From positions 18,196 to 82,195 of the forward strand of contig JAUSKG010000022.1 in the NCBI GenBank assembly GCA_030647005.1: DNA of 64,000 bases. The letters run 5' to 3'. Position numbers and translations under genes: made by a program. This stretch comes from a bacterium (lineage in GTDB: Bacteria > Patescibacteriota > Patescibacteriia > JACPHY01). Positions 9,410-43,475 of the stretch are shown here, piece by piece; position 1 is the first letter of the stretch; every line of letters starts with the position of its first letter. The notes under the pieces were generated by a model that did not search any database, was not told where the DNA came from, and saw only the letters and a list, made by a program, of their open reading frames with translations.

Positions 9410-10453
9410 CTACACGGGCAACGAACGCTCCGGCATGCACTCTTCTATACACTGTGGATCCAAAACCGTTCCCGCCACTACGGCACGTCGAAGACGCTTC
9501 CCGATAATCCCAAGCTCCTGCCCTGGCGCAAAAGGTCCCGCGGGGCGCACCCACGTCAGGTGTGCGGCTGACAGCACGATTCCTTCCGGGAGATCTTCTG
9601 CAGCGACTACCGCCCGACGGAATGCGCTCCTACCCACTTCCTCACATGGCTGTGGCACCTTCACGCCGCTTCCCATCATCAACTCTACCGCACGGATGCG
9701 TTCGACGAGTACTCGGATCTCATCCGGAGTTGCGGAGAGCTGATGGTCGCGAAAATCTGAGTAGTCGTGCGCAAGCGTGAAATGCTTCTCGACGATCCGC
9801 GCGCCGATCGCGACCGCTGCAACCGCCGCATCATTCCCCATGGTGTGATCCGAGTATCCGATGGTGGAATGTGGAAATTGCTCCCGTAGCGTCGAGATCG
9901 CCCCAAGATTCGCCTGTCCCGGCGGTACCGGATACGATGCGACGCAATGGAGGAGCGCATGATCTCCAGATACGCCACGCGCCGCCCACGCTCCCTGTAC
10001 GTGAGCGACTGCCACACGGATCTCGTCTACCGTCGCAGCACCAGTCGAAAAAATAACTGGCTTTCCCGTATGTGCGATGACCTCGATCATCGGCAGGAAT
10101 GTCAGATCACCCGAGGCGACTTTGTATGCAGGGACGAGCGCATCAAGAAATGCCGCACTCTCACAATCGAATGGGGTTGAAAGAAAGAGCACGCCCGCCC
10201 GTTGCGCAACAGTAGCGAGATGCCGAAAGTCATCATACGAAAGCTGAAAACGGCGTAGCTGCGCAAGACGCCGCTCATCCGTGCGCGCAACAAGTCGCTC
10301 CGGAACAATGGTCTGAAACTTCACCGCGTCCACTCCTGCGAGAGCGGCGCGACCAATGAGGTCTTCTGCAAGCGCACGCGAACCCTCGTGATTATTGCCA
10401 ATCTCTGCAATCACGAATACACGCGATGCAGTATTGTGATGACCAATCATCAT
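9410..10453 (-). CDS. NeuB/PseI/LegI-family nonulosonic acid synthase 1 (with SAF domain)
   Basis: VFVIAEIGNNHEGS...AGVDAVKFQT motifs. The start was trimmed to the MMIGHH methionine, which overlaps the upstream stop by ATGA. Confidence 0.85.
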   Translation of the reverse strand: MMIGHHNTASRVFVIAEIGNNHEGSRALAEDLIGRAALAGVDAVKFQTIVPERLVARTDERRLAQLRRFQLSYDDFRHLATVAQRAGVLFLSTPFDCESAAFLDALVPAYKVASGDLTFLPMIEVIAHTGKPVIFSTGAATVDEIRVAVAHVQGAWAARGVSGDHALLHCVASYPVPPGQANLGAISTLREQFPHSTIGYSDHTMGNDAAVAAVAIGARIVEKHFTLAHDYSDFRDHQLSATPDEIRVLVERIRAVELMMGSGVKVPQPCEEVGRSAFRRAVVAAEDLPEGIVLSAAHLTWVRPAGPFAPGQELGIIGKRLRRAVVAGTVLDPQCIEECMPERSLPV

Positions 10454-10908
10454 ACCGGTAGAGAGACATCTACGTCCTGGAATGCGACCCGTACCATGTG
10501 CATATGCGCCGCGCCCTGCTCCGGTGTCAGCTCGTGCACCGCATCGAGCACCGGCGCGCGCGGCCAGCCCGGATCCGTGAACGTCATCCCACCAAACTCC
10601 CTTGCCTCGCAATACCGTGGAAGAATCGCCGCGTGCGCCTCGGGCGTTGCCATCATGAGGAACAGGAGGTTTATGCGGTCGGGTGCAAACACCCGCGCGA
10701 GCGCATGCTCGACATCGCGCATGACCTGCGCGAATTCCGTCCATGCTTCCGACGTGATTCCACCAAGCGTCGTCGCGTCATCACGATACACCACAAGGAG
10801 CGCGCCGAGGGTGAGCGGCTTCCGTTGCACAAGAACGATCCAATGCATGTACTCGCGGACGAGTGTGTCCGGGTAACCAAATTTTTCCAGAACTGCAGAT
10901 GGGACCAT
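10450..10908 (-). CDS. HIT-like domain protein (degenerate histidine triad)
   Basis: The hydrophobic pattern matches the HIT fold, but the triad position reads EAHAAILPRY in place of HxHxH. Confidence 0.4.
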   Translation of the reverse strand: MVPSAVLEKFGYPDTLVREYMHWIVLVQRKPLTLGALLVVYRDDATTLGGITSEAWTEFAQVMRDVEHALARVFAPDRINLLFLMMATPEAHAAILPRYCEAREFGGMTFTDPGWPRAPVLDAVHELTPEQGAAHMHMVRVAFQDVDVSLPV

Positions 10909-15330: not shown

Positions 15331-16038
15331 TCAATGAACGCTGTGGGTGCCCCCACGCTCGCCTTCGGGCACCATCGCAAGGATTTCCTCGTAATGGTAT
15401 GCGGTGTGCGAACGCTCCATCTGCTGCACGATCCGCACGAAGCGCTCCCAATCCTCCACCGTATCCACCGCGAGCTGCGCAGTACTGTTATCGTGCGACG
15501 CGCTGAAGTTCTTGATGCGGAACTCCTCTGGGTGCTGATAATAGTACCGCGTAACATGCTCGCGATCCAACGGATCCGTCATGCGCACATGCGCGCGTCG
15601 GAATGGCTCCGTGCGCACAACCTCCACGGAAACGCCCACGGGAAAACTCCGCGGAAACGTGTTCGTGACAAGATCATACTCGCTACCGCGAAACAATGCC
15701 ACCGCAGTCGAAATGACCGCAGGATCAGTGAGCGGGCTATCCCCGCACACGCGCACGAATGCGTCGAATTCGTGCGCGTCCGCAGCGGCAAAAAATCGCC
15801 CAGCGACGTCCACAAGTGAACCACGGAAGCACGGAATGCTCTTGTCCGCACAGAACGCAGCGATGGGATCATCGCTCGTTTCGTCCGACGTTGCCACGAT
15901 CACACCATCCACGCCGTGCGCAAGTGCAACACGCTCAAGTGTGTACAGAAGCATGGGCTTCCCCCCAAGGTCACGGAGCACCTTCCCCGGCAACCGTTGC
16001 GAGCTCATCCGTGCTTGAACGATGATGCCGATCGTCAT
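15331..16038 (-). CDS. CMP-sugar cytidylyltransferase (NeuA/PseF-like) 2
   Basis: MTIGIIVQARMSSQRLPGKVL motif. ATGA overlap with the upstream methyltransferase. Confidence 0.7.
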   Translation of the reverse strand: MTIGIIVQARMSSQRLPGKVLRDLGGKPMLLYTLERVALAHGVDGVIVATSDETSDDPIAAFCADKSIPCFRGSLVDVAGRFFAAADAHEFDAFVRVCGDSPLTDPAVISTAVALFRGSEYDLVTNTFPRSFPVGVSVEVVRTEPFRRAHVRMTDPLDREHVTRYYYQHPEEFRIKNFSASHDNSTAQLAVDTVEDWERFVRIVQQMERSHTAYHYEEILAMVPEGERGGTHSVH

Positions 16039-16943
16039 ACGTATGTTTGTGGTGCGGCTGGTACCGCAACCCCTTCGGGATAATATGCAACCGTTTCTGC
16101 ATGCCACCGCTCGAAAAAATTCTGCACCGCACGGTAATCGTCGCCAGTCCAAGGGATGGTTTCGTCGACATCGCGCCGCTCCGCGATCATACACAGAACG
16201 TCATGATCAATGTAGCGATTCGTCTGTCGCACCGCGAAGTGCGCAGTAGCGAGCTGTGCCGTGAGCGTCTGGGCGCTCCACCGGAACGCGTGACTATCCG
16301 CAGCACGACCCCCGAGGTAGTAGTGGAGCGGCTTCTTGAATGGGACGAAAATGCGACTGCCCGTTGCCACCACCACCTGCCCACCGGGCCGCAACATCCG
16401 GTGTGCTGCCGCGAGCATCGCGCGCGGCGACTGACAATTCTCCATGGTCCACGCGATGACCGCGATATCATACTGCCCTGCGGATGTTCCGCTTGCCGCA
16501 TACTCCTCAATGGTGCCACGGAAATTGGGAATACCAAGGGCTGTCATGCGCGCACAGTTCGCGCGCGACGGCTCAATACCAAACACGGCGGCTCCGTACT
16601 CCGACTGCCGGAGCATCTCGAGGAATACCCCCTCCCCTGCACCGATGTCGCACACACGCTTCCCCTGCAGCCCCCCGAGCTGCTCCGCCATGAACGCCGC
16701 GACGAACGTGAGCCGCGCCCGCACTGCCGGTAGGAGCGCGGTGTACCCGTTCCCATAAATCTGCTCTGACCACTCATCCGCAATCGCGCCCGCGGAGCGG
16801 CGTTGCTTCACATACACAAACCCGCACTGTATGCAGATATGAATCGGCTGCCCGCCCGTGTATTCGCGCGCATGCGGAACCTCCACGGCATCCGTGGTAC
16901 CACAAATGTCACAGGGAAAATCCATTGGGTCAGATTGGGACAT
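16035..16943 (-). CDS. class I SAM-dependent methyltransferase with N-terminal Zn-ribbon
   Basis: CDICG...CIQCG Cys pairs; VCDIGAGEG SAM motif I. Confidence 0.7.
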   Translation of the reverse strand: MSQSDPMDFPCDICGTTDAVEVPHAREYTGGQPIHICIQCGFVYVKQRRSAGAIADEWSEQIYGNGYTALLPAVRARLTFVAAFMAEQLGGLQGKRVCDIGAGEGVFLEMLRQSEYGAAVFGIEPSRANCARMTALGIPNFRGTIEEYAASGTSAGQYDIAVIAWTMENCQSPRAMLAAAHRMLRPGGQVVVATGSRIFVPFKKPLHYYLGGRAADSHAFRWSAQTLTAQLATAHFAVRQTNRYIDHDVLCMIAERRDVDETIPWTGDDYRAVQNFFERWHAETVAYYPEGVAVPAAPQTYV

Positions 16944-27080: not shown

Positions 27081-28159
27081 AGCACGGGAACCCGCGCGGG
27101 CACTGATGCCGCGATGACGGGCGCAAAGTGCGCAACGGGGTACATTACAAGACCATCATGCACCGCCTCCGGACGTGCCGGATACCCAAGCAGCACACGA
27201 ACAACCGCGGCTGGCACATTGGCGCCGGCGACCACCGCGGCGCCAACTGCGCCACTCATGCGCACGCTGGCATCGAGGAGGCGCGGGGCACCATCCGCAT
27301 CGCGCGCAATGTCAAAATCGCACGCACCGTGGATGCCGAACGCGCGCACGATCGCGCCGACGTATTCCATGATATCGGGTTCGCACGCGACGCGACACCC
27401 AGCGTTCACCGGGAGCAATGGATCGTACAACCGCAGCCGCGGAATCACCTGCTCCGGGATACCGCCACGCGCCACCACGTCCACATCGTAGACCGCGCCG
27501 CCGTAGTAGGGCATCGCGAGATATCCTGCGAGCGCGATGCCCTGCGCCACGGCCGCGTCGAGCGATCCGGTCCCGCACGCGCGCTCCGGGAGGTCGGGAA
27601 GGAGCGAACGGAACGTGCGCACACGAGCATCGAGGATAATAACCCCGCGCGATCCCGTGCTCCGTCCGGGTTTGAGCACGACACGCCGATCCGGATACCC
27701 GAGACGCGCCGCCGCTTCGCGCGCCACACACCAATCGTCCACCACGGCAAATGCACCCACTGCGATGCCGCGCGCCGCGAGAAACGCGAGCGTCGCACGC
27801 TTATCCGTGAGACAGGACACGATGTCGTGCGCCGGAACCGCGGGGATTATTCCCGCCGCGAGGAGCGCATCACGGTGTGCAGCAAGCACACGACACTCGG
27901 CCTCCGATCCCGGCAGAATGACATCGAGGCGCTCGCGTGCGTGGAGTGCGAAAAGCGCCGCAATGTAGCGCTCGGGATCCTCCTCGGCCATCGGGAGCAC
28001 CGCGAACACATCAACAAATCGCCTGCCAGCCGCATCGGCATTTGCATCAATACCCACGATGAACGCATCGAGATCATCCGCGGTGCGCAGCGCGGTGCAG
28101 AGATCGTACGTGTAGCGACCGCCGATGCAGGTGACGGCGATGTGGGTGCGCCGCATCAT
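27077..28159 (-). CDS. ATP-grasp domain ligase
   Basis: VVLKPGRSTGSRGV and downstream acidic residues match a PylC/CarB-like ATP-grasp architecture. Confidence 0.6.
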   Translation of the reverse strand: MMRRTHIAVTCIGGRYTYDLCTALRTADDLDAFIVGIDANADAAGRRFVDVFAVLPMAEEDPERYIAALFALHARERLDVILPGSEAECRVLAAHRDALLAAGIIPAVPAHDIVSCLTDKRATLAFLAARGIAVGAFAVVDDWCVAREAAARLGYPDRRVVLKPGRSTGSRGVIILDARVRTFRSLLPDLPERACGTGSLDAAVAQGIALAGYLAMPYYGGAVYDVDVVARGGIPEQVIPRLRLYDPLLPVNAGCRVACEPDIMEYVGAIVRAFGIHGACDFDIARDADGAPRLLDASVRMSGAVGAAVVAGANVPAAVVRVLLGYPARPEAVHDGLVMYPVAHFAPVIAASVPARVPVL

Positions 28160-29184
28160 ACGACAGCAATCGCATCTGCGGTAACCGGCGCATCTTTCGC
28201 GACTGCGCGGACGAGACGGCGGCCGAGGAGCGTGTCATACTCCCGCGCGTCAATGCCCGGCGTTGCGGCGCGCTTCGCGGTCACGACATCCGGCGTCAGC
28301 GTGGTCCCCGCAGGGAGATCGCGCGCCGCAACAATGGTTCGCCGATACTGCGCACGGAGCGGCACCTCGGCCGTCACCGGCACCTTCACGCCAGACCCGA
28401 GGGCTGCCTCGGTGGCCCGCACGGCGCGGATGAGGTCTGCGAATTCCTCCATTGTCGCGGAGAAATGGTGATCAGGGCCCGAGAGCGCCCGGTCAAGCGT
28501 CACATGCTTCTCGATAATCTGTGCGCCAAGCGCAACTGCCGCAATCGCACAGGTTGCACCAATGCTGTGATCGGAGTATCCCACCGGATATGGAAACACG
28601 TCACGAAGCGTCGTGATCACACGGAGGTTGGCATCCTCAGGGGGTAATGGGTAGCGCGCGGTGCAGTGGAGGATTGCAAGCTGGCGACACCCCGCCTCCT
28701 CCACCGTCCGTACGGTCCATGCAACCTCTTCCTGGGTGCTCATCGCGGTCGAAATGATGAGCGGCAATCCAGACGTCGCGGCCGCACGGAGGAGCGGAAG
28801 GTTGGTGAGATTCCCGGAGGAAATCTTTATCGCAGGAAAGCCGAGCGCGCGAATCGTGGCGATGTCTTCTGGCATCGCAAAGGACGCAAACACCGAAATG
28901 TGGACGTCTGCGGCTGCACGGGCAATGCGCTCCCACGCCCCGGGCGGCAACGCAATGTGCCGAAACAACTCGTACGATGGCGTCCCCGGCGCATAGTCGC
29001 GCGCCGCGTCCACGAGCTGAAACTTCACCGCGTCCGCACCCGCCGCGGCCGACCGTCGCACCATCTCCATTGCGAGGTCGAGATTCCCGTTGTGGTTGAT
29101 GCCAATCTCGGCGATGACGTACACCGGGCACGCATCGCCAATACGAGACGTCGCAATCGTGAGCGAACGATAATCCATGGTCAT
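28156..29184 (-). CDS. NeuB/PseI/LegI-family nonulosonic acid synthase 2
   Basis: VYVIAEIGINHNGN...AGADAVKFQL; C-terminal SAF domain. ATGA overlap with the upstream gene. Confidence 0.85.
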   Translation of the reverse strand: MTMDYRSLTIATSRIGDACPVYVIAEIGINHNGNLDLAMEMVRRSAAAGADAVKFQLVDAARDYAPGTPSYELFRHIALPPGAWERIARAAADVHISVFASFAMPEDIATIRALGFPAIKISSGNLTNLPLLRAAATSGLPLIISTAMSTQEEVAWTVRTVEEAGCRQLAILHCTARYPLPPEDANLRVITTLRDVFPYPVGYSDHSIGATCAIAAVALGAQIIEKHVTLDRALSGPDHHFSATMEEFADLIRAVRATEAALGSGVKVPVTAEVPLRAQYRRTIVAARDLPAGTTLTPDVVTAKRAATPGIDAREYDTLLGRRLVRAVAKDAPVTADAIAVV

Positions 29185-29963
29185 ACAATACCCGTTGCTC
29201 CGGGAGCAGTAGTATTCATATACCACGCCCTGCCGACGCCAGCATCAATCCAATTATTCACCCGATTGATCTCCGGATGCGCGTCAAGGAAGGATATGAT
29301 GCGCGGGAAGTCCAGCGGTACCGCTGGCGACAACCCAATCCCCGCATAGATGGCCCGCATCACCACCAAATCCTCCGGCCAATCCACGGTGAGCCGATAC
29401 CGCTGCGGATCAATGGACAGCGGTGCGGGATGGTTCATGACGTGAAATTCCTCCGGATGTTCACGGATGTAAAGCCCGCAGAGCTCGCTCCGATGCCGCT
29501 CGTCCCCCTTTTCCCACGATGCGCGCAGGGCATCGGTACGAATAATCTGAAATGATGCCCCATCCGGCAACCCGAACACCCCAGAATAATCCAAGGCGTG
29601 CTCCTGATGGTACTGCCACACGCTCGGTAAACACCCGAGATATGGAAATGGACTCTCCGTCGTCACACGGAACACATGATCCGCACCCACGCGCTCGGCC
29701 CCCAGGATGAGCCGACGCAATACATCACGCTCATCGCCAACCACAAATGGGATCCCATACGCTGCGCTCTTCTGCCGATACACCGCGTTCTCTTCGCGCT
29801 CGGAAATACAGAGCACGATGTCGTCAATCTCGAGCCGCTGCTGCAGCTGCGCAACGAGATAATCGAGAATCGAAACGCCGCGCTCCACGTCGAGGTTCTG
29901 GAGTGGCTTCGCATACAATCGCGACGACTGGTTGCGACACGCGAGGATGGCGGCAAGTTTCAT
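29181..29963 (-). CDS. cytidylyltransferase-like (SpsF/NeuA family) 3
   Basis: MKLAAILACRNQSSRLYAKPL cytidylyltransferase N-terminal motif. Confidence 0.65.
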   Translation of the reverse strand: MKLAAILACRNQSSRLYAKPLQNLDVERGVSILDYLVAQLQQRLEIDDIVLCISEREENAVYRQKSAAYGIPFVVGDERDVLRRLILGAERVGADHVFRVTTESPFPYLGCLPSVWQYHQEHALDYSGVFGLPDGASFQIIRTDALRASWEKGDERHRSELCGLYIREHPEEFHVMNHPAPLSIDPQRYRLTVDWPEDLVVMRAIYAGIGLSPAVPLDFPRIISFLDAHPEINRVNNWIDAGVGRAWYMNTTAPGATGIV

Positions 29964-30964
29964 ACAAGATCACCAGCTGCAATGATCGTGTCCGATGCGA
30001 TTGCACGACGCGCACGCTTTCCTATAACATCCGCAACTGCGGTGATGGTATTAATCTTGCTCGTGCGCTTCAGGATAAGATCCTCGGCACACATCACCTC
30101 GCCCGGCGCGATGTCTCGGTACGCGCACACCGTCCGCTGCAGCTTCTTGCGGTACGCCCACTCCCGATCGGTGAGTGCCCACTCCTGCGAACCGAGCGCA
30201 GCGTATGCGGTTTTTACTTTCTGGGAAAAATCGAGAAACTCTTCCGGGGTGAGCGCAGACACCCAATCTTCCATACCCGCCCTGCGGGAGAGCGTCAGGT
30301 GCTTCTCAATCACGGTCGCCCCCAATCCGATCGCCATGAACGCCGTGAACGGCGCGAGATCGGAATCACCAGCGGTGTGATCCTGAAACCCGATGGACGC
30401 ACGATACCGCTCTGCCAGCGTCGTGATTCTTCGAAGATTGTTATCTGCAATATCGGTTGGTTCTGCCTGAAACCCATGCATGATCGTGATCGGATGCCCG
30501 GCGAAAAGTGCAACGGCGGCATCCACTTCATCGGGGAGACACCCGCCCGTTGAAATGAGCATGTGCCGCTCGCGACTGCTCTGTGCGGCGACCACATGGA
30601 GGAGCGGGGTGTTCGCAATGTTGCTCGTATGCACTTTGTAGCCATCAACGCCGATCCGCTCTAACATCGCAAAGGACGCGCGACCGATAGCATCGGCGTA
30701 AAACGCCATACCTCGCGCGTGCGCATCGGCAACTGCCCGCTCCCACACCGCAGGCGGAAGCTCGAGCTGCTTGTACAGCGCGTAGTGCGTGTAATCGGGG
30801 AATGCCGACTCGTCCGCGTAGAAAATCTGAAACTTCACCGCGTCCGCTCCCGCGGCGGCAGCGGCCTGCACGAACAATGCAACAAGTTTTTCGCTCCCTT
30901 CGTATCCTTGCGCAACCTCCGCAATGAGGAATGGCGGCGCAGCGGTCACAAATGTGGTGCTCAT
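29960..30964 (-). CDS. NeuB/PseI-family nonulosonic acid synthase 3 (divergent)
   Basis: FLIAEVAQGYEGS...AGADAVKFQI, a NeuB TIM-barrel plus SAF domain. Start trimmed to MSTTF. Confidence 0.75.
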   Translation of the reverse strand: MSTTFVTAAPPFLIAEVAQGYEGSEKLVALFVQAAAAAGADAVKFQIFYADESAFPDYTHYALYKQLELPPAVWERAVADAHARGMAFYADAIGRASFAMLERIGVDGYKVHTSNIANTPLLHVVAAQSSRERHMLISTGGCLPDEVDAAVALFAGHPITIMHGFQAEPTDIADNNLRRITTLAERYRASIGFQDHTAGDSDLAPFTAFMAIGLGATVIEKHLTLSRRAGMEDWVSALTPEEFLDFSQKVKTAYAALGSQEWALTDREWAYRKKLQRTVCAYRDIAPGEVMCAEDLILKRTSKINTITAVADVIGKRARRAIASDTIIAAGDLV

Positions 30965-32085
30965 AGGGATTGCGTGGTGCGCGTGAGCATCACAAATTGC
31001 CCACGACGACCGACCGCACGAAACCCAGCTGACGCGAAGAGTGCGAGCGACGCCGCATTCTCTTCGGCAATCTCCGCGGTGATGGAACGCACGTCGGGGA
31101 ATGCGGTCCGGCACGCCGCACCCGCCTCACGCAACGCGGCCGCGCCCAATCCCTTGCCGCGATGCTCGGCGGCGATCGCAAGCGTGATCTCCGCGGTATC
31201 CGCGTGCTGATCAAAGCGCACCTGCCCTACCGGCATCCCATCGGTGCTGACGATGTACAGCGCACGCGTAGGATCCGCGAGTACGGATGCCACCCATGCG
31301 ACGTGCGCATCCCATGGGACCGCATGCGGTGTACGGTAAAACTGGTACGCAGAAGGATCATTTCGCCACGCGAAGAGCGTCGCCGCATCCGCGAGCGTCG
31401 CGGGCCGGAGCGTCACCACACGCGACATGCGCGCGGCAAGATGCCGTTCGGCATCGGCGGGCGCTGCGACGTGCGCGGCATACGCACGGATCTTCGCGTA
31501 CTCCAGTATGACGGCTGCGGCAGCGGTATCCCGGCGTTCGCTCGGCACCGCACCCCACGGCAACTCCGCGGGCTGGTTCACGATACGCCCAAACCACCCG
31601 ACCTCCTGCGCGCGCTTCAGGAACGTGAGAAACGCGCGGAGCTGGTGGTGTGGGGAGGCGACGAGGAGAAGTGTACGCCATTGATACTCCTGCGCGAGCG
31701 CGAGCACATGAACGGCCTGATCGCGCGTATGCATCGCATTGGCATCGAGTACGATGGCCGATACGGGCACCGCGCGTTCGCAGAGCCACCCCGCGAGATG
31801 GTCCACGGTCACCGGAGAGCGAACACGATTGCCCGTAATCGCGACCTGCGCAGCAAAACCGCCGCGAAACAACGCAAGAACCTTCGCTCCCCTATCGTAT
31901 CCGTTGCCCTGGAGCCACACAATCGCATCCGCACGCTCCGGTGCCTGCGTCAGGATACGCGCGTGGATCGCGTCGAGCGCGGGATTACCCGACAGCGGCA
32001 TGCCATCGCGTGGGGTCCACGAGGCCGCTGGTTCCTGGAGGGACATACTGTTCAAGGATAGCAGCACATGCACCGCACGGCGCAT
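30961..32085 (-). CDS. DUF218(YdcF/SanA-like)–GNAT acetyltransferase fusion
   Basis: The N-terminal half reads ADAIVWLQGNGYDRGAKVLALF (DUF218-like). The C-terminal half reads RFDQHADTAEITLAIAAEHRGKGLGAAAL (GNAT motif A). Start is uncertain (32046–32247). Confidence 0.5.
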   Translation of the reverse strand: MRRAVHVLLSLNSMSLQEPAASWTPRDGMPLSGNPALDAIHARILTQAPERADAIVWLQGNGYDRGAKVLALFRGGFAAQVAITGNRVRSPVTVDHLAGWLCERAVPVSAIVLDANAMHTRDQAVHVLALAQEYQWRTLLLVASPHHQLRAFLTFLKRAQEVGWFGRIVNQPAELPWGAVPSERRDTAAAAVILEYAKIRAYAAHVAAPADAERHLAARMSRVVTLRPATLADAATLFAWRNDPSAYQFYRTPHAVPWDAHVAWVASVLADPTRALYIVSTDGMPVGQVRFDQHADTAEITLAIAAEHRGKGLGAAALREAGAACRTAFPDVRSITAEIAEENAASLALFASAGFRAVGRRGQFVMLTRTTQSL

Positions 32086-32869
32086 TCCACGCTGCTGCGA
32101 GTTCCGCAACCTGCAATGCCGTCTCTGCGCCAACGAGCACGTCCGCAGCAGGGCATCGTTCACGCACGTACGCAAGTGCCAGCGCGATCGGCGAAACCGC
32201 ACGGTCATCACACACACGCCGAATACCCGCGAGTGCCTCGCGTGCACCCGGAATCGGCGGCGCGTCGTCCGGCGCCATCGTCAGGAGCCCTTGGAGCAGC
32301 ACGCTCCGCACGACGATACGCTTTCCCAACGCGGCAGCGCGATCGAATATCTCGGCTGTGAGAAACCGACGATCCACGATGCTCGTGGGTACCTGCACGA
32401 ATGTGACATCCGTGAGCGCCAACGCAGCCAACGCCTCCTCCGGAGTGTAGACCGATATCCCGATATGCTCAACGACGCCGCCACCGATCATCTGCACGAG
32501 TGCAGGACGAACCGTGCCCCACCGCGCGAGGAGCGTCCGCCGCACCAGGAGACCATCGAGTCGCGCAACGCCAAGGCGCTCCCGCGATGCACCCACGCTC
32601 TGCACGATCGCCGCCGCATCCGCGCCGTCACCTTCCGCCCCCAGTTTCGTCGTGACCCGCGCGGCATCAGCGATGTCGAGCGTACGGAATGCCGCTCCCA
32701 TTCGCTCCTCGGCATCCCCGTAGTCCGGCGCCGTATCGAACGCACGAACTCCCGCCCCCCACGCTGCCGCGATAATCGCATGCGCGCCAACCATATCTGG
32801 CTGCCCGACACGATTGGCAATGCCGTACCGCTGCCCAAGTTGAGCCGTACCGAGCATGAGATTACCCAT
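31985..32869 (-). CDS. aldo/keto reductase
   Basis: LGTAQLGQRYG...FDTAPDYGDAEE AKR signature. Confidence 0.75.
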   Translation of the reverse strand: MGNLMLGTAQLGQRYGIANRVGQPDMVGAHAIIAAAWGAGVRAFDTAPDYGDAEERMGAAFRTLDIADAARVTTKLGAEGDGADAAAIVQSVGASRERLGVARLDGLLVRRTLLARWGTVRPALVQMIGGGVVEHIGISVYTPEEALAALALTDVTFVQVPTSIVDRRFLTAEIFDRAAALGKRIVVRSVLLQGLLTMAPDDAPPIPGAREALAGIRRVCDDRAVSPIALALAYVRERCPAADVLVGAETALQVAELAAAWNAPCGACAAILEQYVPPGTSGLVDPTRWHAAVG

Positions 32870-32944: not shown

Positions 32945-33991
32945 TCATACGGGGCCGCGTGCGTCGAGGTACCGCGCCCGGAAGTCCGCAATGATGCGCT
33001 CAGCGGACCACTGACGGAACGGAATTTCGAGGCAAACAATTTCCATGGTCTTGAGCGCGTCGCGGATCGGCGCTGGAGCCGGCGCGTCCATGTAGTCGCT
33101 CACATCAATAAGTGTCGGCGGGATGCCAGAGAAGTGACAGATGGGCCAGTGCGGCAGCGCGAGGTACGCCGCAATGGAGCGATCAAACCAATCGAGCACC
33201 GAGCACGTCGGGGATTCCTTTGCCAGCACGGTGTACTGATTTACAGCAACCGCAACGTGTGTGAAATCAATGAGGCAGCGCCACCCGGACCCGAGGGCGA
33301 CGAGGAGCATCTCCATGTCCTCCGGCGTACCACCGAACCCCCAAAACATATCCCGACTCCAGGACGTGCGCGCACCAATCACGGCCTCGTACCACTCCCG
33401 CTTGACGACAGGGGGCACGTTCTCCACCGCGAGACACGACCCATCATCGAGACCACCGAGTGCGTCCATCATCCGCCGCCGCGCCTCGCCGTCATCGTGG
33501 TACTGCCCGTACCCGGGATGCACCACGCCCATGGGGATGCCATGCGGGCGCACTGCTGCGCGTGCGACGCATTTCCCCCACACGATGGTTTCCGCGCACC
33601 ATTCCGCCCAGCTGCGATCGAGCGGTCTCCCGCGTATCGCGTAGGAACCGGTCTCGTCGAATCGCTCCGCAAAATCCACCCCGCAGTTCTCGGCACCGAA
33701 GTGCACAAACACTGGCATTCCGGTGGGCAGTCGAGCCACGATGCCCGGCAGATCATCCGTGGTGACCCCAGGTGTGTAGCTCGAATGTGCGACGCGCATC
33801 TGAATACCCTGTATGATGCCACGCTCGAAGAGCACGCACTGGAGTACGAAGTGCTGATCCTGTGCGACGAGATTCTCAAACCACAATCCACCGTAGACAT
33901 CTACCATCACTATTCTCCATGGAAAAGAACCACGCCGCAACAGTATCCTGCTGCGGCGAAAGACGCAAGTATCTGCGGTACCACACGTCAA
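32945..33991 (-). CDS. hypothetical protein (348 aa)
   Basis: Long ORF in the operon frame pattern. Its start overlaps the upstream stop by ATGA. No family recognised. Confidence 0.4.
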   Translation of the reverse strand: MTCGTADTCVFRRSRILLRRGSFPWRIVMVDVYGGLWFENLVAQDQHFVLQCVLFERGIIQGIQMRVAHSSYTPGVTTDDLPGIVARLPTGMPVFVHFGAENCGVDFAERFDETGSYAIRGRPLDRSWAEWCAETIVWGKCVARAAVRPHGIPMGVVHPGYGQYHDDGEARRRMMDALGGLDDGSCLAVENVPPVVKREWYEAVIGARTSWSRDMFWGFGGTPEDMEMLLVALGSGWRCLIDFTHVAVAVNQYTVLAKESPTCSVLDWFDRSIAAYLALPHWPICHFSGIPPTLIDVSDYMDAPAPAPIRDALKTMEIVCLEIPFRQWSAERIIADFRARYLDARGPV

Positions 33992-36513
33992 TTGTACCTC
34001 CGGAACACCGGCTTCACTGCGGGTCCCACGAGATACCGATCACGGTGCGCGGTATCATTGAGCGCGCGCGAATACGCGGGGAGCACGCGCTCCACTGCGG
34101 CGAGCGTCTCGGCAATCTCCGCGTCGCCGTGTGAGAAGGAAAGCACAAACGCACCTTGGAAGAGCATCCGCTCCTTGATCATCTCCTGCAGGAGTATCGT
34201 CTTCAGTACGAGCGAAACCGTCCCATCGCGCTCGGTGCACTGTACCATCGTGTTGCATGGGAAACCGATGACGCGGATGGAATCGGTAAGCCCTGCGGCG
34301 GCAAGGCGGCTACGAAGACCGTTCTGGAGCTGCACCCCGCGCTCCCAGAGGTGCCGTGCAACATCCTCGCGCTCGACCGTGATGATCGCTGCATACGCTG
34401 CCGCAAGCGCAATCGTTTCTGCGCCGTGGGTCGTCGAAATAAGAAACACGCGCGGCTTATCGTGATGGAGACCGCCGAGCTCCATGACATCGCGCCGTCC
34501 GGCGAGCACTGCGCACGAGTATCCGTTGGCAATGCCCTTGCCGTACGTCGAAAGATCCGGATGGATCTTGTACCGCGCCTGCGCGCCACCGATACCAAAC
34601 CGGAAGCCCGTAATCATCTCGTCCATGATGAGCAACGCGCCCTCGCGTGCAGTAATCGCGCGCACGCCCTCCAAAAACCCAGGCGCCGGATCTTCCGTGG
34701 TCATCGCCTCCATAATGACGCACGCAATCTCTCCGGGATGCTCCGCGAAAAGCTGCTCGACACTCGCGAGATCGTTATAGGCGAACTTTAATGTCAATCC
34801 CTTAATCTCCTCGGGGACGCCTGCGTCGCATGCAGTGGTGCCAATGAACCAATCGTCGTAACTGAAGAACGGCTGATTGCACGCGGCGATGTACTTCCGT
34901 CCGGTAAACGCCCGCGCGAGCTTCGTTGCCGCCGTCGTCACTGTGGAACCATTCTTTGCAAACTTGACCATGTCCGCGTGCGGAAGTTTCGCGGTGAGGA
35001 GATCTGCAAGCTCAAACTCGACAACGTGCGGGCGTCCAAAATTGGTGCCCATGTCCATCTGCGCGCGCACGGCCTCCTGCACCGCCGGGTAGCAGTGCCC
35101 AAGGAGCACGGAGCGCAACCCCATGCACCAGTCCACATACTCCACGCCGTCGCTACCGATCACGCGCGCACCATTCCCGCGCACGATGGCCGCGGGCGCA
35201 TTGGCGGAGAACTGATCATCGCCTTTCGAATTCGTATGCGCACCACCGGGGATAAGATCATGGCGGCGAGCGAGGAGCGCATCGAGTGACGCGCTGGTGC
35301 GCGGAGAGACATCACGACGTGCAGGGAGTGCGGAATAGTGTTGGATGCATTGCGTGACGGTGGCGATGACACGCTGCACGTCGTCATCACTCATGGCAGG
35401 GAAGAGCGGAATCGTGAGGCAGTGGTCGTAGTACGCCTCGGCGCTCGGACACCGCACGGCAGCGTACGCGGACTGCGCACGGTAGTACGGGTGACGGTAC
35501 ACGGGGAGATAGTGTACTTGCGTCCCAACCCCGCGAGCAGCGAGGTCCGCAACGACTGCCGCGCGCGTCGTCCCGAGCGCGGCAAAATCACACTGGAGGA
35601 CATACAGGTGCGCGTTCGTCACGCGATCGGGCAGCCATGTCGGCGGCGTGAGGTGTGGGATACCGGAAAACGCCGCATCGTACGCCGCGACGATCGCGCG
35701 ACGGCGCGCCATGAACTGCGGGAGCTTCTGGAGCTGCGAAATGCCGAGTGCCGCCTGGAGATCCGTGAGGAAGTAGTTGTACCCCAATGCAATCTCCTCG
35801 TGATACCACGGCCCGTCAGCCGGTGATCGAAACTGAAGCGGGTCTTTCGTGATGCCGTGACCGCGGAGCAGCGCGATGCGATCGCGGAGCGCCGCATCGC
35901 GCGCGGTGACTGCGCCGCCTTCCCCAGTCGTAATGTGCTTCACGGGATGAAAGCTGAACACCGCGAAATCGCTCTGCGTGCACGCACCGATGATCTGCCC
36001 GCGATAGACGGACCCGAGCGTATGGCACGCGTCCTCAATAATCCAAACCTTCTTGCCAAATCGCCGCTCCGCATCGCGCGCGATCATGGCGATTGCGTCC
36101 ATGTCCGCGCTCTGTCCGGCAAAGTGCACGGGAATGATCGCGCGCGTCCGTGCAGTCACCTTCCGTGCAACATCCGCGACATCCACGCATGTCGTCGCGG
36201 GGTCAACGTCCGCGAACACCGTCACCGCACCGCAGTATGCAACGCAGTTTGCACTTGCTGCGAAGGTGATCGCAGGAACAATAACCTCATCGCCCGTACC
36301 AATTCCTGCCGCGAGACAAGCGAGGTGCAGTCCCGCAGTTCCGGAAGAGCATGCGACGACGTGCGGCGTACCAACGACCGGGACGAGCGCGCGCTCAAAT
36401 GCGGCAATCGTCGGCCCGCGGGCGATCGTCGCAGACCGGAGGACCGCAGCTACCGCCGCGATGTCGTCCGCATCCACCATCTGGCGTCCGTACGGAATGA
36501 TCTGCTCGTTCAT
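33988..36513 (-). CDS. bifunctional DegT-type aminotransferase / glutamate-1-semialdehyde-2,1-aminomutase-like (class III aminotransferase) fusion (841 aa)
   Basis: The N-terminal half reads VVACSSGTAGLHLA...GDEVIVPAITFAASA...FSFHPVKHI (DegT). The C-terminal half reads GGAHTNSKG...DEMITGFRFG...TYGKGIANG (HemL-like PLP fold). Confidence 0.75.
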   Translation of the reverse strand: MNEQIIPYGRQMVDADDIAAVAAVLRSATIARGPTIAAFERALVPVVGTPHVVACSSGTAGLHLACLAAGIGTGDEVIVPAITFAASANCVAYCGAVTVFADVDPATTCVDVADVARKVTARTRAIIPVHFAGQSADMDAIAMIARDAERRFGKKVWIIEDACHTLGSVYRGQIIGACTQSDFAVFSFHPVKHITTGEGGAVTARDAALRDRIALLRGHGITKDPLQFRSPADGPWYHEEIALGYNYFLTDLQAALGISQLQKLPQFMARRRAIVAAYDAAFSGIPHLTPPTWLPDRVTNAHLYVLQCDFAALGTTRAAVVADLAARGVGTQVHYLPVYRHPYYRAQSAYAAVRCPSAEAYYDHCLTIPLFPAMSDDDVQRVIATVTQCIQHYSALPARRDVSPRTSASLDALLARRHDLIPGGAHTNSKGDDQFSANAPAAIVRGNGARVIGSDGVEYVDWCMGLRSVLLGHCYPAVQEAVRAQMDMGTNFGRPHVVEFELADLLTAKLPHADMVKFAKNGSTVTTAATKLARAFTGRKYIAACNQPFFSYDDWFIGTTACDAGVPEEIKGLTLKFAYNDLASVEQLFAEHPGEIACVIMEAMTTEDPAPGFLEGVRAITAREGALLIMDEMITGFRFGIGGAQARYKIHPDLSTYGKGIANGYSCAVLAGRRDVMELGGLHHDKPRVFLISTTHGAETIALAAAYAAIITVEREDVARHLWERGVQLQNGLRSRLAAAGLTDSIRVIGFPCNTMVQCTERDGTVSLVLKTILLQEMIKERMLFQGAFVLSFSHGDAEIAETLAAVERVLPAYSRALNDTAHRDRYLVGPAVKPVFRRYN

Positions 36514-37565
36514 ACTGGTGCGCCGGACGGCGTTGCAATCGGTATGTGCAGGTGCTCGGCATGCTGTGCGCCATCGAGTACCGCAATGGCCTGCCGAAGA
36601 TGCGACACATCAAAGAACCAGGAGTTACTGTCTGAACTGTACTCAAACCCATCGCGACAACGCGCTGCGTCCCGGTACGCTGCAGCGCGCTGTGCAAAAC
36701 GATCCTGCGGGAGGAGCATGTAGTACCCACGGAATTCCAGCGTGTTCCGGGAGTCATCACGACCAATGAGCACTTCGTGGATCTTTTCTCCCGGACGAAT
36801 ACCGACATGCTCCTGTCGAACGCCTGGCGCAATCGCTTCCGCGAGATCAGAAATTTTCATCGAGGGAATCTTCGGCACGAAAATCTCATACCCCTTTGCG
36901 GCCATGAGCACGCCGAGCACAAACCGCGCCGCCTGATCGAGCGTAATCCAGAACCGCGTCATGCGGGGGTCTGTAACCGGAATAACACCCTGTACCGCGC
37001 ACTGCCGGAAGTACGGAATGACTGACCCACGGGAACCTATGACATTTCCATACCGTACAACCGTAAAAACCTTCTCATGTCCACTGCCGTACGCGTTCGC
37101 GGCAATGAAAAGCTTGTCCGAGCAGAGCTTCGTTGCGCCGTAAAGATTGATCGGGTTACACGCCTTGTCTGTCGAGAGCGCAATAACACGCTTCACGCCA
37201 TTCTCCAACGCAGCATCAATGACATGCATAGCACCCATGACGTTCGTGCGAATGCACTCCGCGGGATTGTACTCCGCGGCCGGAACCTGCTTCAATGCCG
37301 CTGCGTGCACGACGTAGTCCACTCCATGGAATGCACGGATGAGCCGCTCGCGATCACGCACGTCACCGATGAAGTACCGGAGACAGGGGTACCGCTCGGT
37401 GCTCAACTGTTGCTGCATCTCATATTGCTTGAGCTCATCGCGGCTGAAGATGATGAGTTTCTTCGGTTTCCAATTCGCGAGGATGTACTGGGTGAGTTGC
37501 TTACCCAGTGAACCGGTGCCGCCGGTAATGAGAATGGTGCTGCCGTCGAACTCCGCGTATGGCAT
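36510..37565 (-). CDS. pseB: UDP-N-acetylglucosamine 4,6-dehydratase (inverting), PseB/FlaA1/CapD-like
   Basis: ILITGGTGSLGK, YFIGDVRDRERL, IHAAALKQVPAAEYNP, NPINLYGATKLCSDKLF and VRYGNVIGSRGSVIP are near-identical in pattern to H. pylori FlaA1/PseB. Confidence 0.85.
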   Translation of the reverse strand: MPYAEFDGSTILITGGTGSLGKQLTQYILANWKPKKLIIFSRDELKQYEMQQQLSTERYPCLRYFIGDVRDRERLIRAFHGVDYVVHAAALKQVPAAEYNPAECIRTNVMGAMHVIDAALENGVKRVIALSTDKACNPINLYGATKLCSDKLFIAANAYGSGHEKVFTVVRYGNVIGSRGSVIPYFRQCAVQGVIPVTDPRMTRFWITLDQAARFVLGVLMAAKGYEIFVPKIPSMKISDLAEAIAPGVRQEHVGIRPGEKIHEVLIGRDDSRNTLEFRGYYMLLPQDRFAQRAAAYRDAARCRDGFEYSSDSNSWFFDVSHLRQAIAVLDGAQHAEHLHIPIATPSGAPV

Positions 37566-37574
37566 AGATGATCG

Positions 37575-38276
37575 TTACCGATTTTCCGATGATGCCGGTG
37601 CGCGCATGTAGGAGGTCATGGTACTCCCAGCGAGAGCGTGCGCAGCGAGTCCGGGAAGACGACTCACGAGAAACAACGCGTTACCAGCTGCGGAGGGAAA
37701 GCCGAGCGCGAGCGCGAGCGCCGCAAGGCATCCGTCCACATTCAGAGGGATACGACGACCCTTCGCCGTCGCGAGTGCCTCCGAGAGCGCACGAGCACGC
37801 TCCAAAGGAGGCCCTGCGATCCCGAGCGTCGAGGCGCGAATAAAAAGTGCGGTGGTCCGCGGGTCCTCCTCCGTATACACCTTATGCCCAAAACCGGGGA
37901 GACGTTCGTCTGCGGCGATGGCTGCATGCACAACCGCGACCGGATCGCCCGCGCGCGCTAACAACTCCATCGCCGCACTCACCGCGCACCCGTGCCGCGG
38001 CCCCATGGTGAGAATGCCGGCGGCGATCGCGGTGTGGAGCGCGTTCCCCGTCGAAGCCGAGACCCGCGCCGCCACGGTGGATGGTGGCTCCTCTCCGTGA
38101 TCGCACGCAGCGACGAGCATCGCATCGAGCATGGCGCGCTCGCGCTCAAGCGGCCGCGATCCGCGAAGGAGGAGAAACACCACATCCACGAACGATGCCT
38201 CGGCGATGAGGGACGCGAGCGGAACGCCGACAACGTCGGGTGCATGCTCATGATGCGTGGAATTCATAGTATGCAT
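37575..38276 (-). CDS. citrate synthase-family small protein (citryl-CoA lyase-like)
   Basis: GFGHKVYTEEDPR, the canonical citrate-synthase catalytic His motif. Only the ~230-aa small-domain form is present. First gene of the long minus-strand array. Confidence 0.55.
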   Translation of the reverse strand: MHTMNSTHHEHAPDVVGVPLASLIAEASFVDVVFLLLRGSRPLERERAMLDAMLVAACDHGEEPPSTVAARVSASTGNALHTAIAAGILTMGPRHGCAVSAAMELLARAGDPVAVVHAAIAADERLPGFGHKVYTEEDPRTTALFIRASTLGIAGPPLERARALSEALATAKGRRIPLNVDGCLAALALALGFPSAAGNALFLVSRLPGLAAHALAGSTMTSYMRAPASSENR

Positions 38277-38425
38277 ACCACTGCTCCGCGACGAACAGCG
38301 TGCATCTCTCCAAGCTCCTGAAGAGTGCCGCAACATCCGTATCCCCATCATTGCGAAACAACGAGAGCGTGTCCAATGAACGAAATGCAGCCCCCAGAAG
38401 AGGGGCTGCACGTACTCCACCAACG

Positions 38426-42400
<3,975 letters not shown>

Positions 42401-42442
42401 CACGTCCTCCGTCGTTCCGTTGTTCTGTTGTGAAGGAGCTCC

Positions 42443-42490
42443 TCTTCCCCGCTCAACCCCATGTTGCCATGGGGTTGAGCGGGGAAGAGG
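42443..42490 (-). terminator. perfect ~20-bp-stem hairpin between two minus-strand genes (candidate terminator/attenuator; no U-tract)
   Basis: TCTTCCCCGCTCAACCCCAT-gttgcc-ATGGGGTTGAGCGGGGAAGA, located between the stop of gene 42507..43475 and the start of the giant repeat protein. Confidence 0.35.
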
Positions 42491-42506
42491 CGCGTCGCAA
42501 CGCGCC

Positions 42507-43475
42507 TCATGGAGCAGCTCCACCGGTGTCCTCATCTTCCATGATGAGGAGGACGATCGCGGTGATCGCAACGCTCGCACCAACTCCCAAGAGGATGTTC
42601 GCTCGCACGCCGGCAGCTTCGCCCTGCTCCTTCGCCGCGACCGCCTCGAGCTGTGTCGCGGCAATCGAGAATCCCTCCTGCGCAGACACCGTCTCCCATC
42701 CCTGCCACGCGCCGAGTCCGATTCCCGCGAGTCCGAGCGCGACACCGGACCACTCGGCGATCACGAGGCCGTAGGATGGTTTCTCCGGCACGTCAAAGTC
42801 ACGGAATGGAGGTGTCAACGGTGCGCGCGAAGGGTCGGAATGATCCACGTCCGTTGCGGGTGGCGGATCGTCCTGACGAGATGGCGGGACAGTCATCACC
42901 GCATTGTTCGGCGGAGATGGGAGGTCCTCGACAGCAGGAACGATGTGCTCGTCCGACGCATCTGCTCCCTGCGTGCGCATCGTGCGAAAGAATTGCTCCG
43001 CCTGTCGCTTGAATTCCCGCGTGAGCACTCCCGCACCACCGGAAACCTCGAAGGTTGCTCGGTCGCTCACCGTCGAGCTCGCGACACGCACGCGGAACAG
43101 CGTCGCCTGGAACACCGTCACCTCCAGCCGATCAATGGAGACCATGACGATGGACTGCACGCGCAGCGTGCTGCCGATCTGCGCGAGGCACAGGATATCC
43201 ATTGCGCATCCTTGGACGGCAACGACTGGCGAGAAGCCGAGCAGGCGTTCCGCATCGGTGATGGAAACGATATCGCCAAGCTGTCCCTCAAGGTGCGCGG
43301 TTACGAGGAGGATAGACGAGAGCTCCTCCGCCGTCGCTCCGGCAATCGCACCGTTCGCTATGACTGGCACCACGAAGGTGCGCTCGCGGGGTTCTTTCGC
43401 CTCAGCACTGCCGATCACGCTCGTCATGAAGACGAGGGCGATTGTACGCGCACACCACGTTCGCAGAAACTGCAT
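42507..43475 (-). CDS. hypothetical secreted/membrane-anchored protein
   Basis: Start MQFLRTWCARTIALVFMTSVIGSAEA (signal peptide; GGAGGA SD). The C-terminus is hydrophobic (GVALGLAGIGLGAW…ITAIVLLIM). The upstream 65 aa in the ORF track are spurious. Confidence 0.45.
   Translation of the reverse strand: MQFLRTWCARTIALVFMTSVIGSAEAKEPRERTFVVPVIANGAIAGATAEELSSILLVTAHLEGQLGDIVSITDAERLLGFSPVVAVQGCAMDILCLAQIGSTLRVQSIVMVSIDRLEVTVFQATLFRVRVASSTVSDRATFEVSGGAGVLTREFKRQAEQFFRTMRTQGADASDEHIVPAVEDLPSPPNNAVMTVPPSRQDDPPPATDVDHSDPSRAPLTPPFRDFDVPEKPSYGLVIAEWSGVALGLAGIGLGAWQGWETVSAQEGFSIAATQLEAVAAKEQGEAAGVRANILLGVGASVAITAIVLLIMEDEDTGGAAP

Follow-up and report, generated by a model that had tools for sequence, protein, structure and literature searches.

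We analysed a 64,000-nucleotide stretch of a patescibacterial contig (JAUSKG010000022.1, forward-strand positions 18,196 to 82,195; hereafter the window, in whose coordinates all positions are given) and found that one of its genes encodes two pyridoxal 5'-phosphate (PLP) enzymes in a single chain. The gene lies on the minus strand at 33988-36513, begins with ATG and specifies 841 residues, a PseC domain followed by a class-III PLP domain; its GenBank product, MDO8463223.1, is labelled glutamate-1-semialdehyde 2,1-aminomutase. We have little doubt that the fusion is genuine or that the label of its C-terminal half is wrong. We favour, with modest confidence that tips just past the even point, the reading that the protein is a bifunctional PLP enzyme of a non-canonical pseudaminic-acid-type pathway, in which the C-terminal domain acts as a transaminase on a later carbonyl made by an oxidoreductase. 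What makes the case interesting is not so much the fusion as the family to which this domain belongs, a widespread and systematically mis-named group of glycan-pathway PLP enzymes.

The original prediction had described one 841-residue open reading frame (ORF) uniting a DegT-type and a class-III PLP domain, and the ORF, Pfam and NCBIfam all bear this out. The domain search that it proposed returned both families, DegT_DnrJ_EryC1 at residues 14-386 (E = 2.8e-114) and Aminotran_3 (PF00202) at residues 438-753 (E = 8.3e-40). In NCBIfam, residues 6-389 (35347-36498) passed the PseC equivalog TIGR03588 (450 bits against a cut-off of 423.5; profile positions 2-379 of 380), and residues 413-841 (33991-35277) passed NF004856 (PRK06209; 550 bits against 486; profile positions 14-441 of 450). 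Since both matches span nearly the whole of their profiles, both domains are complete. The linker between them, approximately residues 390-412 (35278-35346), consists of what used to be the C-terminal tail of PseC joined to what used to be the N-terminal tail of the second enzyme. The Schiff-base lysine of the PseC domain is K192 in SFHPVK (residues 187-192), an instance of the SFHxxK motif of the DegT family, and in an alignment it is kept in all eight PseC::class-III fusions described below. In the class-III domain the PLP lysine is K659 in TYGKG (656-660) and the cofactor-binding aspartate is D631 in DEMITGFR (631-638), both invariant in the family alignment; these two HemL-like motifs and a third, GGAHTNSKG at 423-431, are present as had been reported. 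In an AlphaFold model the N-terminal half superposes on ArnB and PseC structures (TM 0.87-0.91) and the C-terminal half on glutamate-1-semialdehyde (GSA) aminomutase (TM 0.79). The claim of two different PLP folds in one polypeptide is therefore mistaken: both halves are fold-type-I (aspartate-aminotransferase-like) domains, drawn from different families. The model of the whole fusion is uninformative on inter-domain packing (pTM 0.49), and its linker region, residues 399-431, has a pLDDT below 50. The gene had also been placed beside pseB, and indeed the TGA stop of PseB, an inverting UDP-GlcNAc 4,6-dehydratase (36510-37565, minus strand; TIGR03589, 486 bits against a cut-off of 407.75), overlaps the ATG of the fusion as ATGA. 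The N-terminal domain thus has all the marks of PseC, in sequence as well as in context.

Had a stop codon been missed or the frame been shifted near 35.2 kb, the fusion would have been two adjacent genes, a possibility that the original prediction itself had raised. Neither a stop codon nor a change of frame was found at the junction, and the GC content of the three codon positions is alike in the two halves (0.67/0.50/0.72 in PseC and 0.64/0.46/0.72 in the class-III part). An independent Logan assembly of run SRR13727527 contains the identical 841-residue protein on a contig of its own. The nearest relatives of the C-terminal domain are stand-alone proteins of about 440 residues (83%, 71% and 69% identity), and three loci show what the unfused arrangement looks like. 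At L003, whose class-III protein is the one 83% identical to the fusion domain, the PseC tail ends in TAG and is followed by a 104-nucleotide spacer, the ATG of a separate HemL-like gene (442 residues) and an aldo/keto reductase (AKR) gene. At L004 and L005 the order is PseB, PseC (379 residues), a 42-nucleotide gap, the HemL-like gene (440 residues), a CN-hydrolase gene in the case of L005, and AKR. The gene order of these three relatives is that of the window. When the nucleotide sequences are aligned, the window lacks the PseC stop, the spacer and the start of the class-III gene, and the two tails are joined in phase. The junction is an in-phase deletion of about 100 nucleotides, not a single-base error.

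We are accordingly highly confident that the window encodes a real bifunctional fusion, and give almost no credence to an assembly or sequencing artefact that joined two genes separate in reality. Such an artefact could be imagined because the sequence comes from a metagenome-assembled genome, because pseC and the class-III gene are separate in the closest relatives, and because a related population with separate genes occurs in the same sequencing run. Against it, an entire segment of about 100 nucleotides is gone in phase, which is not what a one-nucleotide indel leaves behind; two assemblies agree exactly; the related population has diverged, as the 83% identity of its class-III protein attests, and the assemblers placed the two populations on separate contigs; coding statistics run on across the junction; and the same architecture is found in two other lineages, from unrelated samples. 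A frameshift or missed stop at the junction is ruled out by the continuous frame, the in-phase loss and the identical second assembly. Run SRR13727527 is the source of both L003, with separate genes, and L092, and so holds two related populations, one unfused and one fused; the fusion therefore looks evolutionarily recent.

The original prediction had called the architecture atypical and had suggested a database search for the same fusion. It is rare: among 5.8 billion proteins searched, the PseC::class-III architecture was found in eight protein clusters, that of the window and seven others (P0002-P0008, 791-875 residues), which add two further lineages. The two other PseC fusions with readable DNA sit directly after PseB and before NeuB. 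Between the C-terminal domains of the three lineages, identity is 44% (window and P0002), 38% (window and P0004) and 31% (P0002 and P0004), and the window domain is 54% identical to a stand-alone protein, P0009. The linkers of the other PseC fusions, taken between conserved domain boundaries, are unrelated sequences of 31-56 residues. Because the window domain is thus closer to a stand-alone protein than to the C-terminal domains of the other lineages, and because the linkers are unrelated, the fusion, as judged from the sequences, arose at least three times independently. PseB::PseC proteins of about 700 residues are a far commoner PseC fusion and make up most of the top 120 matches. Two candidates for further or reversed fusions, P0286 (778 residues) and P0293 (777 residues), proved instead to be tandem DegT-DegT proteins with two full DegT_DnrJ_EryC1 domains. 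The fusion is a rare but ordinary merger of two adjacent pathway genes, and attachment to PseC probably does no more than ensure that two enzymes of the same pathway are co-expressed in stoichiometric amounts. It need not mean that the two enzymes catalyse consecutive reactions, because both are expected to be homodimers and the linker is predicted to be disordered.

The class-III domain bears the name of HemL, the GSA aminomutase, and we hold it nearly certain that it is not one. It failed the HemL equivalog TIGR00713 by a wide margin (210.6 bits against a cut-off of 527.3) and fell far below the cut-offs of the other HemL models, NF000818, NF009055 and NF001864. Two substrate-site residues of GSA aminomutase are Arg32 and Glu406 (Synechococcus numbering), the second of which is thought to exclude 2-oxoacid co-substrates. 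In HMMER alignments to structures 4e77 and 3k28, Arg32 aligns with K430, a lysine that is invariant in the family, and Glu406 aligns with Q786, a position at which the family consensus is Q, N or a gap. Close homologues of the domain (about 60% identity) are common in metagenome-assembled genomes of Patescibacteria, a group that to our knowledge lacks the haem pathway. The window gene and 76 of the 80 family loci sampled as described below lie in glycan clusters; the remaining four (L073, L080, L083 and L088) have no reference families nearby. Haem genes were not seen beside it in any of the loci studied here. Model scores, active-site residues and gene context together rule out a true HemL. 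In the literature searched, we found no experimental work behind the name "glutamate-1-semialdehyde 2,1-aminomutase" that NF004856 carries. Plasmids encode family members too, at about 46% identity: nine from Escherichia and several megaplasmids from Rhizobium and Sinorhizobium, among them pNGR234b (1341736-1343016).

When one genome per species was scanned for the family pattern, at least 594 matches from many phyla were confirmed, and the best 80 of these loci were annotated by tblastn with reference proteins from annotated loci. The PseC fusion occurs in none of the 80. Two classes of context account for most of the sample. About 55 of the 80 loci carry a CDP-hexose cassette, and within 10 kb of the HemL-like gene we found glucose-1-phosphate cytidylyltransferase in 49 loci, an RfbC-like gene in 46, PIG-L in 41, DUF4910 in 39, a C-methyltransferase-like gene in 37 and a short-chain dehydrogenase/reductase (SDR) in 36. 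PGAP-annotated examples lie on Shinella and Tsukamurella plasmids. In its tight form the cassette has seven genes (about 55 loci among L013-L091, and L007 and L008): glucose-1-phosphate cytidylyltransferase, PIG-L, the HemL-like enzyme, SDR, a methyltransferase of about 420 residues, an RfbC-like gene and DUF4910. It spans Acidobacteriota, Planctomycetota, Gemmatimonadota, Cyanobacteria, Bacteroidota, Proteobacteria and Actinomycetota. No DegT aminotransferase was found in the CDP-hexose cassettes among the 80 loci; therefore the HemL-like enzyme is the sole candidate there to aminate the keto-sugar.

The second class, about 20 of the 80 loci, consists of nonulosonic-acid clusters, with DegT in 18, the cytidylyltransferase CTP_transf_3 in 17, NeuB in 15, Gfo/Idh/MocA oxidoreductase (Gfo) in 11, CN-hydrolase in 8 and AKR in 3. 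In 17 of them the immediate neighbour of the HemL-like gene is a CTP_transf_3 or Gfo gene, and Gfo or AKR is present in 14. The order CTP_transf_3, HemL-like, CN-hydrolase, Gfo, NeuB is seen, with Pfam annotation, at L009-L011. A CN-hydrolase gene directly follows the HemL-like gene at L005, L006 and L009-L011 and in 8 of the 80 sampled loci, and an AKR gene comes after it at L003, L004, L005 and L006. L001 and L002 encode all six canonical Pse functions (among them PseB, PseC, a PseG-like protein, PseI and a PseF fused to GNAT) together with the class-III domain and Gfo; the genes after NeuB at these loci look like PseG, with a GT28 C-terminal motif. With the six functions intact, the transaminase and oxidoreductase must supplement the pathway and do not replace any part of it.

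For the partners to which the class-III enzyme has been fused, we surveyed an exhaustive library of 1.84 billion representatives; 55 of the top 150 matches match the C-terminal domain, and 19 of these 55 are multi-domain proteins. By Pfam scans, ten of the 19 are CTP_transf_3::HemL-like proteins and one, P0418 (1026 residues), is a Gfo::CTP_transf_3::HemL-like protein that is trifunctional by domain content. The others comprise Gfo::HemL-like (1), GNAT::HemL-like (2; P0309 and P0322), DUF4910::HemL-like (2), C-methyltransferase::HemL-like (1), a protein with an unrecognised N-terminal domain (1) and PseC::HemL-like (1). Representatives of the multi-domain forms are P0418, P0363, P0309, P0322, P0289, P0291 and P0308, and the DUF4910 forms carry HTH_47. 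In one lineage or another, then, every cassette neighbour has become a fusion partner of the class-III enzyme, the cytidylyltransferase most often and PseC rarely.

We read the C-terminal domain as a transaminase of a later carbonyl because it failed the HemL model, because of the part the enzyme plays in CDP-hexose cassettes, and because its neighbours and fusion partners are cytidylyltransferases and NAD(P) oxidoreductases, which an N-acetyltransferase and a nitrilase-superfamily amidase often accompany. In the pathway that we propose, PseB would supply the 4-keto sugar to the PseC domain, which is predicted to transaminate it to UDP-4-amino-4,6-dideoxy-beta-L-AltNAc. The AKR (31985-32869, minus strand; PF00248, E = 2.9e-28) would then turn a hydroxyl of a later, probably CMP-linked, Pse-type intermediate into a carbonyl. 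The class-III domain would aminate that carbonyl, and the new amine would be acylated. On the Pse skeleton the hydroxyls available for this would be those at C-8 or C-4, and the product would be a pseudaminic-acid derivative with an extra or altered amino substituent. A cytidine-nucleotide sugar is what the two context classes have in common, a CDP-hexose in one and in the other a CMP-nonulosonate made by CTP_transf_3; a glycosidically locked CMP-nonulosonate would in addition hide its C-2 keto group from the transaminase. The route from hydroxyl to N-acyl-amine through a dehydrogenase, a transaminase and an acyltransferase is standard (WbpB/WbpE/WbpD, GnnA/GnnB and NtdC/NtdA), and the Gfo/Idh/MocA enzymes of the pairs WbpB/WbpE, GnnA/GnnB and NtdC/NtdA run in the oxidising direction. 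A transaminase beside a CN-hydrolase is the glutamine-transaminase/omega-amidase arrangement, which makes amination irreversible; the CN-hydrolase of the relatives would act as the omega-amidase for a glutamine donor. The original prediction had the second domain perform aminomutase steps on the 4-keto sugar from PseB. For this we found no support: the domain failed the HemL model, and context and fusions point to a transaminase of a later carbonyl. A broader proposal would be that the HemL-like enzyme, Gfo or AKR and a cytidylyltransferase of the CMP-sugar-synthetase type form a new three-enzyme module that adds an amino group to a cytidine-nucleotide-activated sugar, giving a class of tri-amino nonulosonic acids new to chemistry and, in the CDP-hexose cassette of dozens of phyla, a CDP-linked branched amino sugar, and that the enzyme would be the first nucleotide-sugar aminotransferase of the class-III fold; we think this rather unlikely as a whole and put it forward tentatively.

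Several points weigh against the transaminase reading. It is from gene context alone that the reaction type, substrate and direction of the domain are read; that it is a transaminase and not a mutase, that it works in the aminating direction, that its substrate is nucleotide-linked and which position is aminated are things that we infer. The literature searched yielded two descriptive mentions, no biochemically characterised member of the family and, among natural nonulosonic acids, none with three amino groups. The best solved relatives of the domain by sequence are GSA aminomutases (E = 1e-50), and mutase-type chemistry may be compatible with such a sequence. An AKR fits deamination followed by reduction as well as oxidation followed by amination. 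No Gfo gene stands beside the fusion, those of the window being confined to two other nonulosonate modules, and no CN-hydrolase gene is adjacent to it, its place being taken by AKR and an unrelated TIM-barrel gene. Finally, we infer only from the gene order of L082 and L085 that the class III aminotransferase of the Aeromonas clusters discussed below belongs to the NF004856 family.

Three other functions for the domain must be set against these data. The kinship with GSA aminomutases is an argument for a true aminomutase of the GSA type, which would shift an amino group within a sugar intermediate and need no external donor, for instance from a 4-amino-3-keto to a 3-amino-4-keto sugar after oxidation, or from a 2-amino-aldose to a 1-amino-ketose after de-N-acetylation. 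In essence this is the idea of the original prediction. GSA aminomutases are the best relatives in structure (TM 0.79) as well as sequence, the N-terminal motif GGxxxS/T-K/R is kept in modified form, an oxidoreductase able to make an alpha-amino-ketone is always nearby, and the cluster has a PIG-L deacetylase. We nevertheless find it decidedly improbable, given the wide margin by which the HemL equivalog was failed and the replacement of Glu406 by Gln or Asn, or its absence, throughout the family. In CDP-hexose cassettes, moreover, the enzyme is the sole aminotransferase and hence needs an external donor, and the frequent CN-hydrolase neighbour makes sense only with glutamine-dependent intermolecular transamination. 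The same two contexts bear on a second possibility, that the domain adds no nitrogen at all and either deaminates an amine to a ketone, which the AKR would reduce to a hydroxyl, or epimerises in the manner of GenB2 at C-6', with a change in the stereochemistry or substitution of the Pse skeleton as the outcome. AKRs usually reduce carbonyls, and the solved relatives of the domain include 9aue, a class-III 6'-epimerase/C-6' aminotransferase (E = 1e-21); the TIM-barrel protein encoded next door is similar to ketose epimerases, whose chemistry takes place beside a carbonyl, and a direct fusion to PseC suits the amine product of PseC as substrate. Yet GNAT::HemL-like fusions and CN-hydrolase neighbours point to an amine that is made and then acylated, the oxidoreductase partner is mostly a Gfo/Idh/MocA enzyme, of the kind that oxidises in the known pairs, and in CDP-hexose cassettes the enzyme must aminate. 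We judge this possibility unlikely.

It seems to us similarly unlikely that the domain leaves the sugar skeleton alone and makes a small amine substituent, an amino-acyl or amino-alkyl group derived from an aldehyde or keto-acid, which the cytidylyltransferase would activate or an ATP-grasp or GNAT enzyme attach, by analogy with phosphonate tailoring pathways, where cytidylyltransferase and aminotransferase are fused. The typical substrates of class-III enzymes are omega-aldehydes, cytidylyltransferase::aminotransferase is the commonest fusion architecture, and the ATP-grasp ligase, citryl-CoA-lyase-like gene, SDR and formyltransferase-like genes of the cluster would all be fit for N-acyl decorations. 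Minimal loci (L001, L002, L082 and L085), however, consist of the Pse core, an oxidoreductase and the class-III enzyme and have no ligase, and the only plausible acceptor in CDP-hexose cassettes is the keto-sugar. Amination of a later, oxidoreductase-made carbonyl remains the reading that we prefer.

Downstream of the fusion the genes of the window form an operon-like array, all on the minus strand. The next gene, Q7S96_03040 (32945-33907), is conserved, has its ATG at 33907 with GGAG upstream, encodes 320 residues and occupies the slot that in relatives holds the CN-hydrolase. Its product had no Pfam or NCBIfam match and belongs to a family of 42 proteins, several from Patescibacteria and two with PF01261; the nearest named homologue is from Uhrbacteria (62%). 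The structure model (pLDDT 95.5) is a xylose-isomerase-like TIM barrel, with D-tagatose and D-psicose 3-epimerases as best Foldseek matches (E = 8e-7). The 348-residue ORF after the fusion was considered as a divergent CN-hydrolase and as a homologue of the post-NeuB genes of L001 and L002; both were ruled out, as it is such a TIM barrel and the proteins of those loci are PseG-like. One homologue, P0250 (L093), lies among housekeeping genes, and therefore the TIM-barrel family is not confined to glycan clusters; from its position, the 320-residue gene may share the pathway of the fusion. Beyond the AKR gene comes an ORF with DUF218 and GNAT domains (30961-32247; PF02698 and PF13302), PseH-like with 50 bits to TIGR03585, below the cut-off. 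As listed it overlaps the AKR gene by 263 nucleotides; the Logan gene call starts later, and translation probably begins downstream of position 32247. The fusion partner of DUF218 is the PseH-like GNAT in the window and AKR in L006 (3402-4832). Neither a canonical PseG nor a CN-hydrolase was found anywhere in the 64-kb window, and DUF218 may be a pathway enzyme, possibly a stand-in for the nucleotide-sugar hydrolase PseG. Next are a NeuB-family nonulosonate synthase (29960-31114; PF03102, E = 3e-40), which falls below the PseI and NeuB equivalog cut-offs, and a PseF-like CMP-sugar synthetase of the CTP_transf_3 family (29181-29963; PF02348), which elsewhere is the family that most often adjoins the class-III enzyme or is fused to it. 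NeuB genes thus lie downstream of PseB and the fusion in the same array.

Some 35 kb of glycan genes (3793-38423, minus strand) form a super-cluster that has the fusion at its upstream end. Three NeuB-family synthases (9410-10744, 28156-29226 and 29960-31114), three CTP_transf_3 genes (6815-7594, 15331-16194 and 29181-29963) and three DegT-type aminotransferase domains are found in it, as well as two Gfo genes, two formyltransferase-like genes, an Asn-synthase-type amidotransferase, a HisF-like gene, PIG-L, ATP-grasp and methyltransferases. Twice (15331 to 12987 and 7594 to 4434) CTP_transf_3, Gfo and DegT genes form a triad that mirrors the cassette of CTP_transf_3, Gfo or AKR and the HemL-like enzyme. 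Directly upstream of PseB is a citryl-CoA-lyase-like gene (37575-38423, minus strand) that has only the C-terminal domain of citrate synthase (NF004869, 195 bits, just under the cut-off of 212), an unusual neighbour for a nonulosonic-acid operon. Directly upstream of the glycan cluster, a 1439-residue cysteine-rich MopE-repeat protein (38426-42745, minus strand; PF11617, 242 bits) with the motif CDGxDNDCDGxxDE is possibly a surface protein.

The recurrent, independent fusion ties a mis-named class-III enzyme functionally to the pseudaminic-acid pathway. Thousands of entries called glutamate-1-semialdehyde 2,1-aminomutase, from the at least 594 genomes of many phyla, are carbohydrate-pathway enzymes. 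Solving the module of transaminase, oxidoreductase and cytidylyltransferase would explain unassigned pseudaminic acid derivatives on bacterial surfaces and could bring to light nonulosonic-acid chemistry that is new and that bears on serotyping, phage receptors and immune recognition.

Each half of the protein has a well-known counterpart. With PseC of Helicobacter pylori (HP0366; PDB 2fn6, 2fni and 2fnu) the N-terminal 389 residues share the equivalog model, the SFHxxK motif, the place after PseB and the structure, and the window protein adds to this a second PLP enzyme of 430 residues at the C-terminus. With HemL (PDB 2gsa, 4e77 and 3k28) the C-terminal domain shares the class-III fold-type-I scaffold, about 35% identity, the positions of the PLP lysine and aspartate, and a related N-terminal substrate-loop motif, but its family differs in the replacement of Arg32 by Lys and of Glu406 by Gln and in its glycan-cluster context. 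The pairs WbpB/WbpE, GnnA/GnnB and NtdC/NtdA follow the same logic of a dehydrogenase and a PLP transaminase, then N-acylation; their aminotransferases WbpE, GnnB and NtdA are of the DegT family, whereas the module described here employs a class-III enzyme and is tied to a cytidylyltransferase of the CMP-sugar-synthetase type. Precedent for class-III enzymes that act on sugar carbonyls is given by the aminoglycoside C-6' aminotransferases (PDB 7lm0 and 7lld). The class-III gene and CN-hydrolase of many relatives may be likened to the MtnV-type transaminase and the nitrilase-superfamily amidase MtnU, although the window has the TIM-barrel gene, and no CN-hydrolase, in that slot. The nearest parallels to the whole locus are in Aeromonas and Legionella. 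In 96 Aeromonas strains with derivatives of pseudaminic acid on their flagellins, the genes run pseB, pseC, AKR, pseF, class III aminotransferase, pseG, pseI (Forn-Cuni et al. 2021, PMC7874193); the pair of AKR and class III aminotransferase, part of the group I polar-flagellin glycosylation islands, was described there with no function assigned. Members of our family at L082 and L085 reproduce this gene order. In the O-antigen locus of Legionella pneumophila serogroups 6 and 12, a gene annotated as GSA aminomutase lies beside pseG, a cytidylyltransferase and an AKR-like gene (PMC3694923). Both loci have the same combination of pse genes, AKR and class-III enzyme as the window, and differ from it in that their aminotransferase is a separate gene after pseF and not, as here, fused to pseC.

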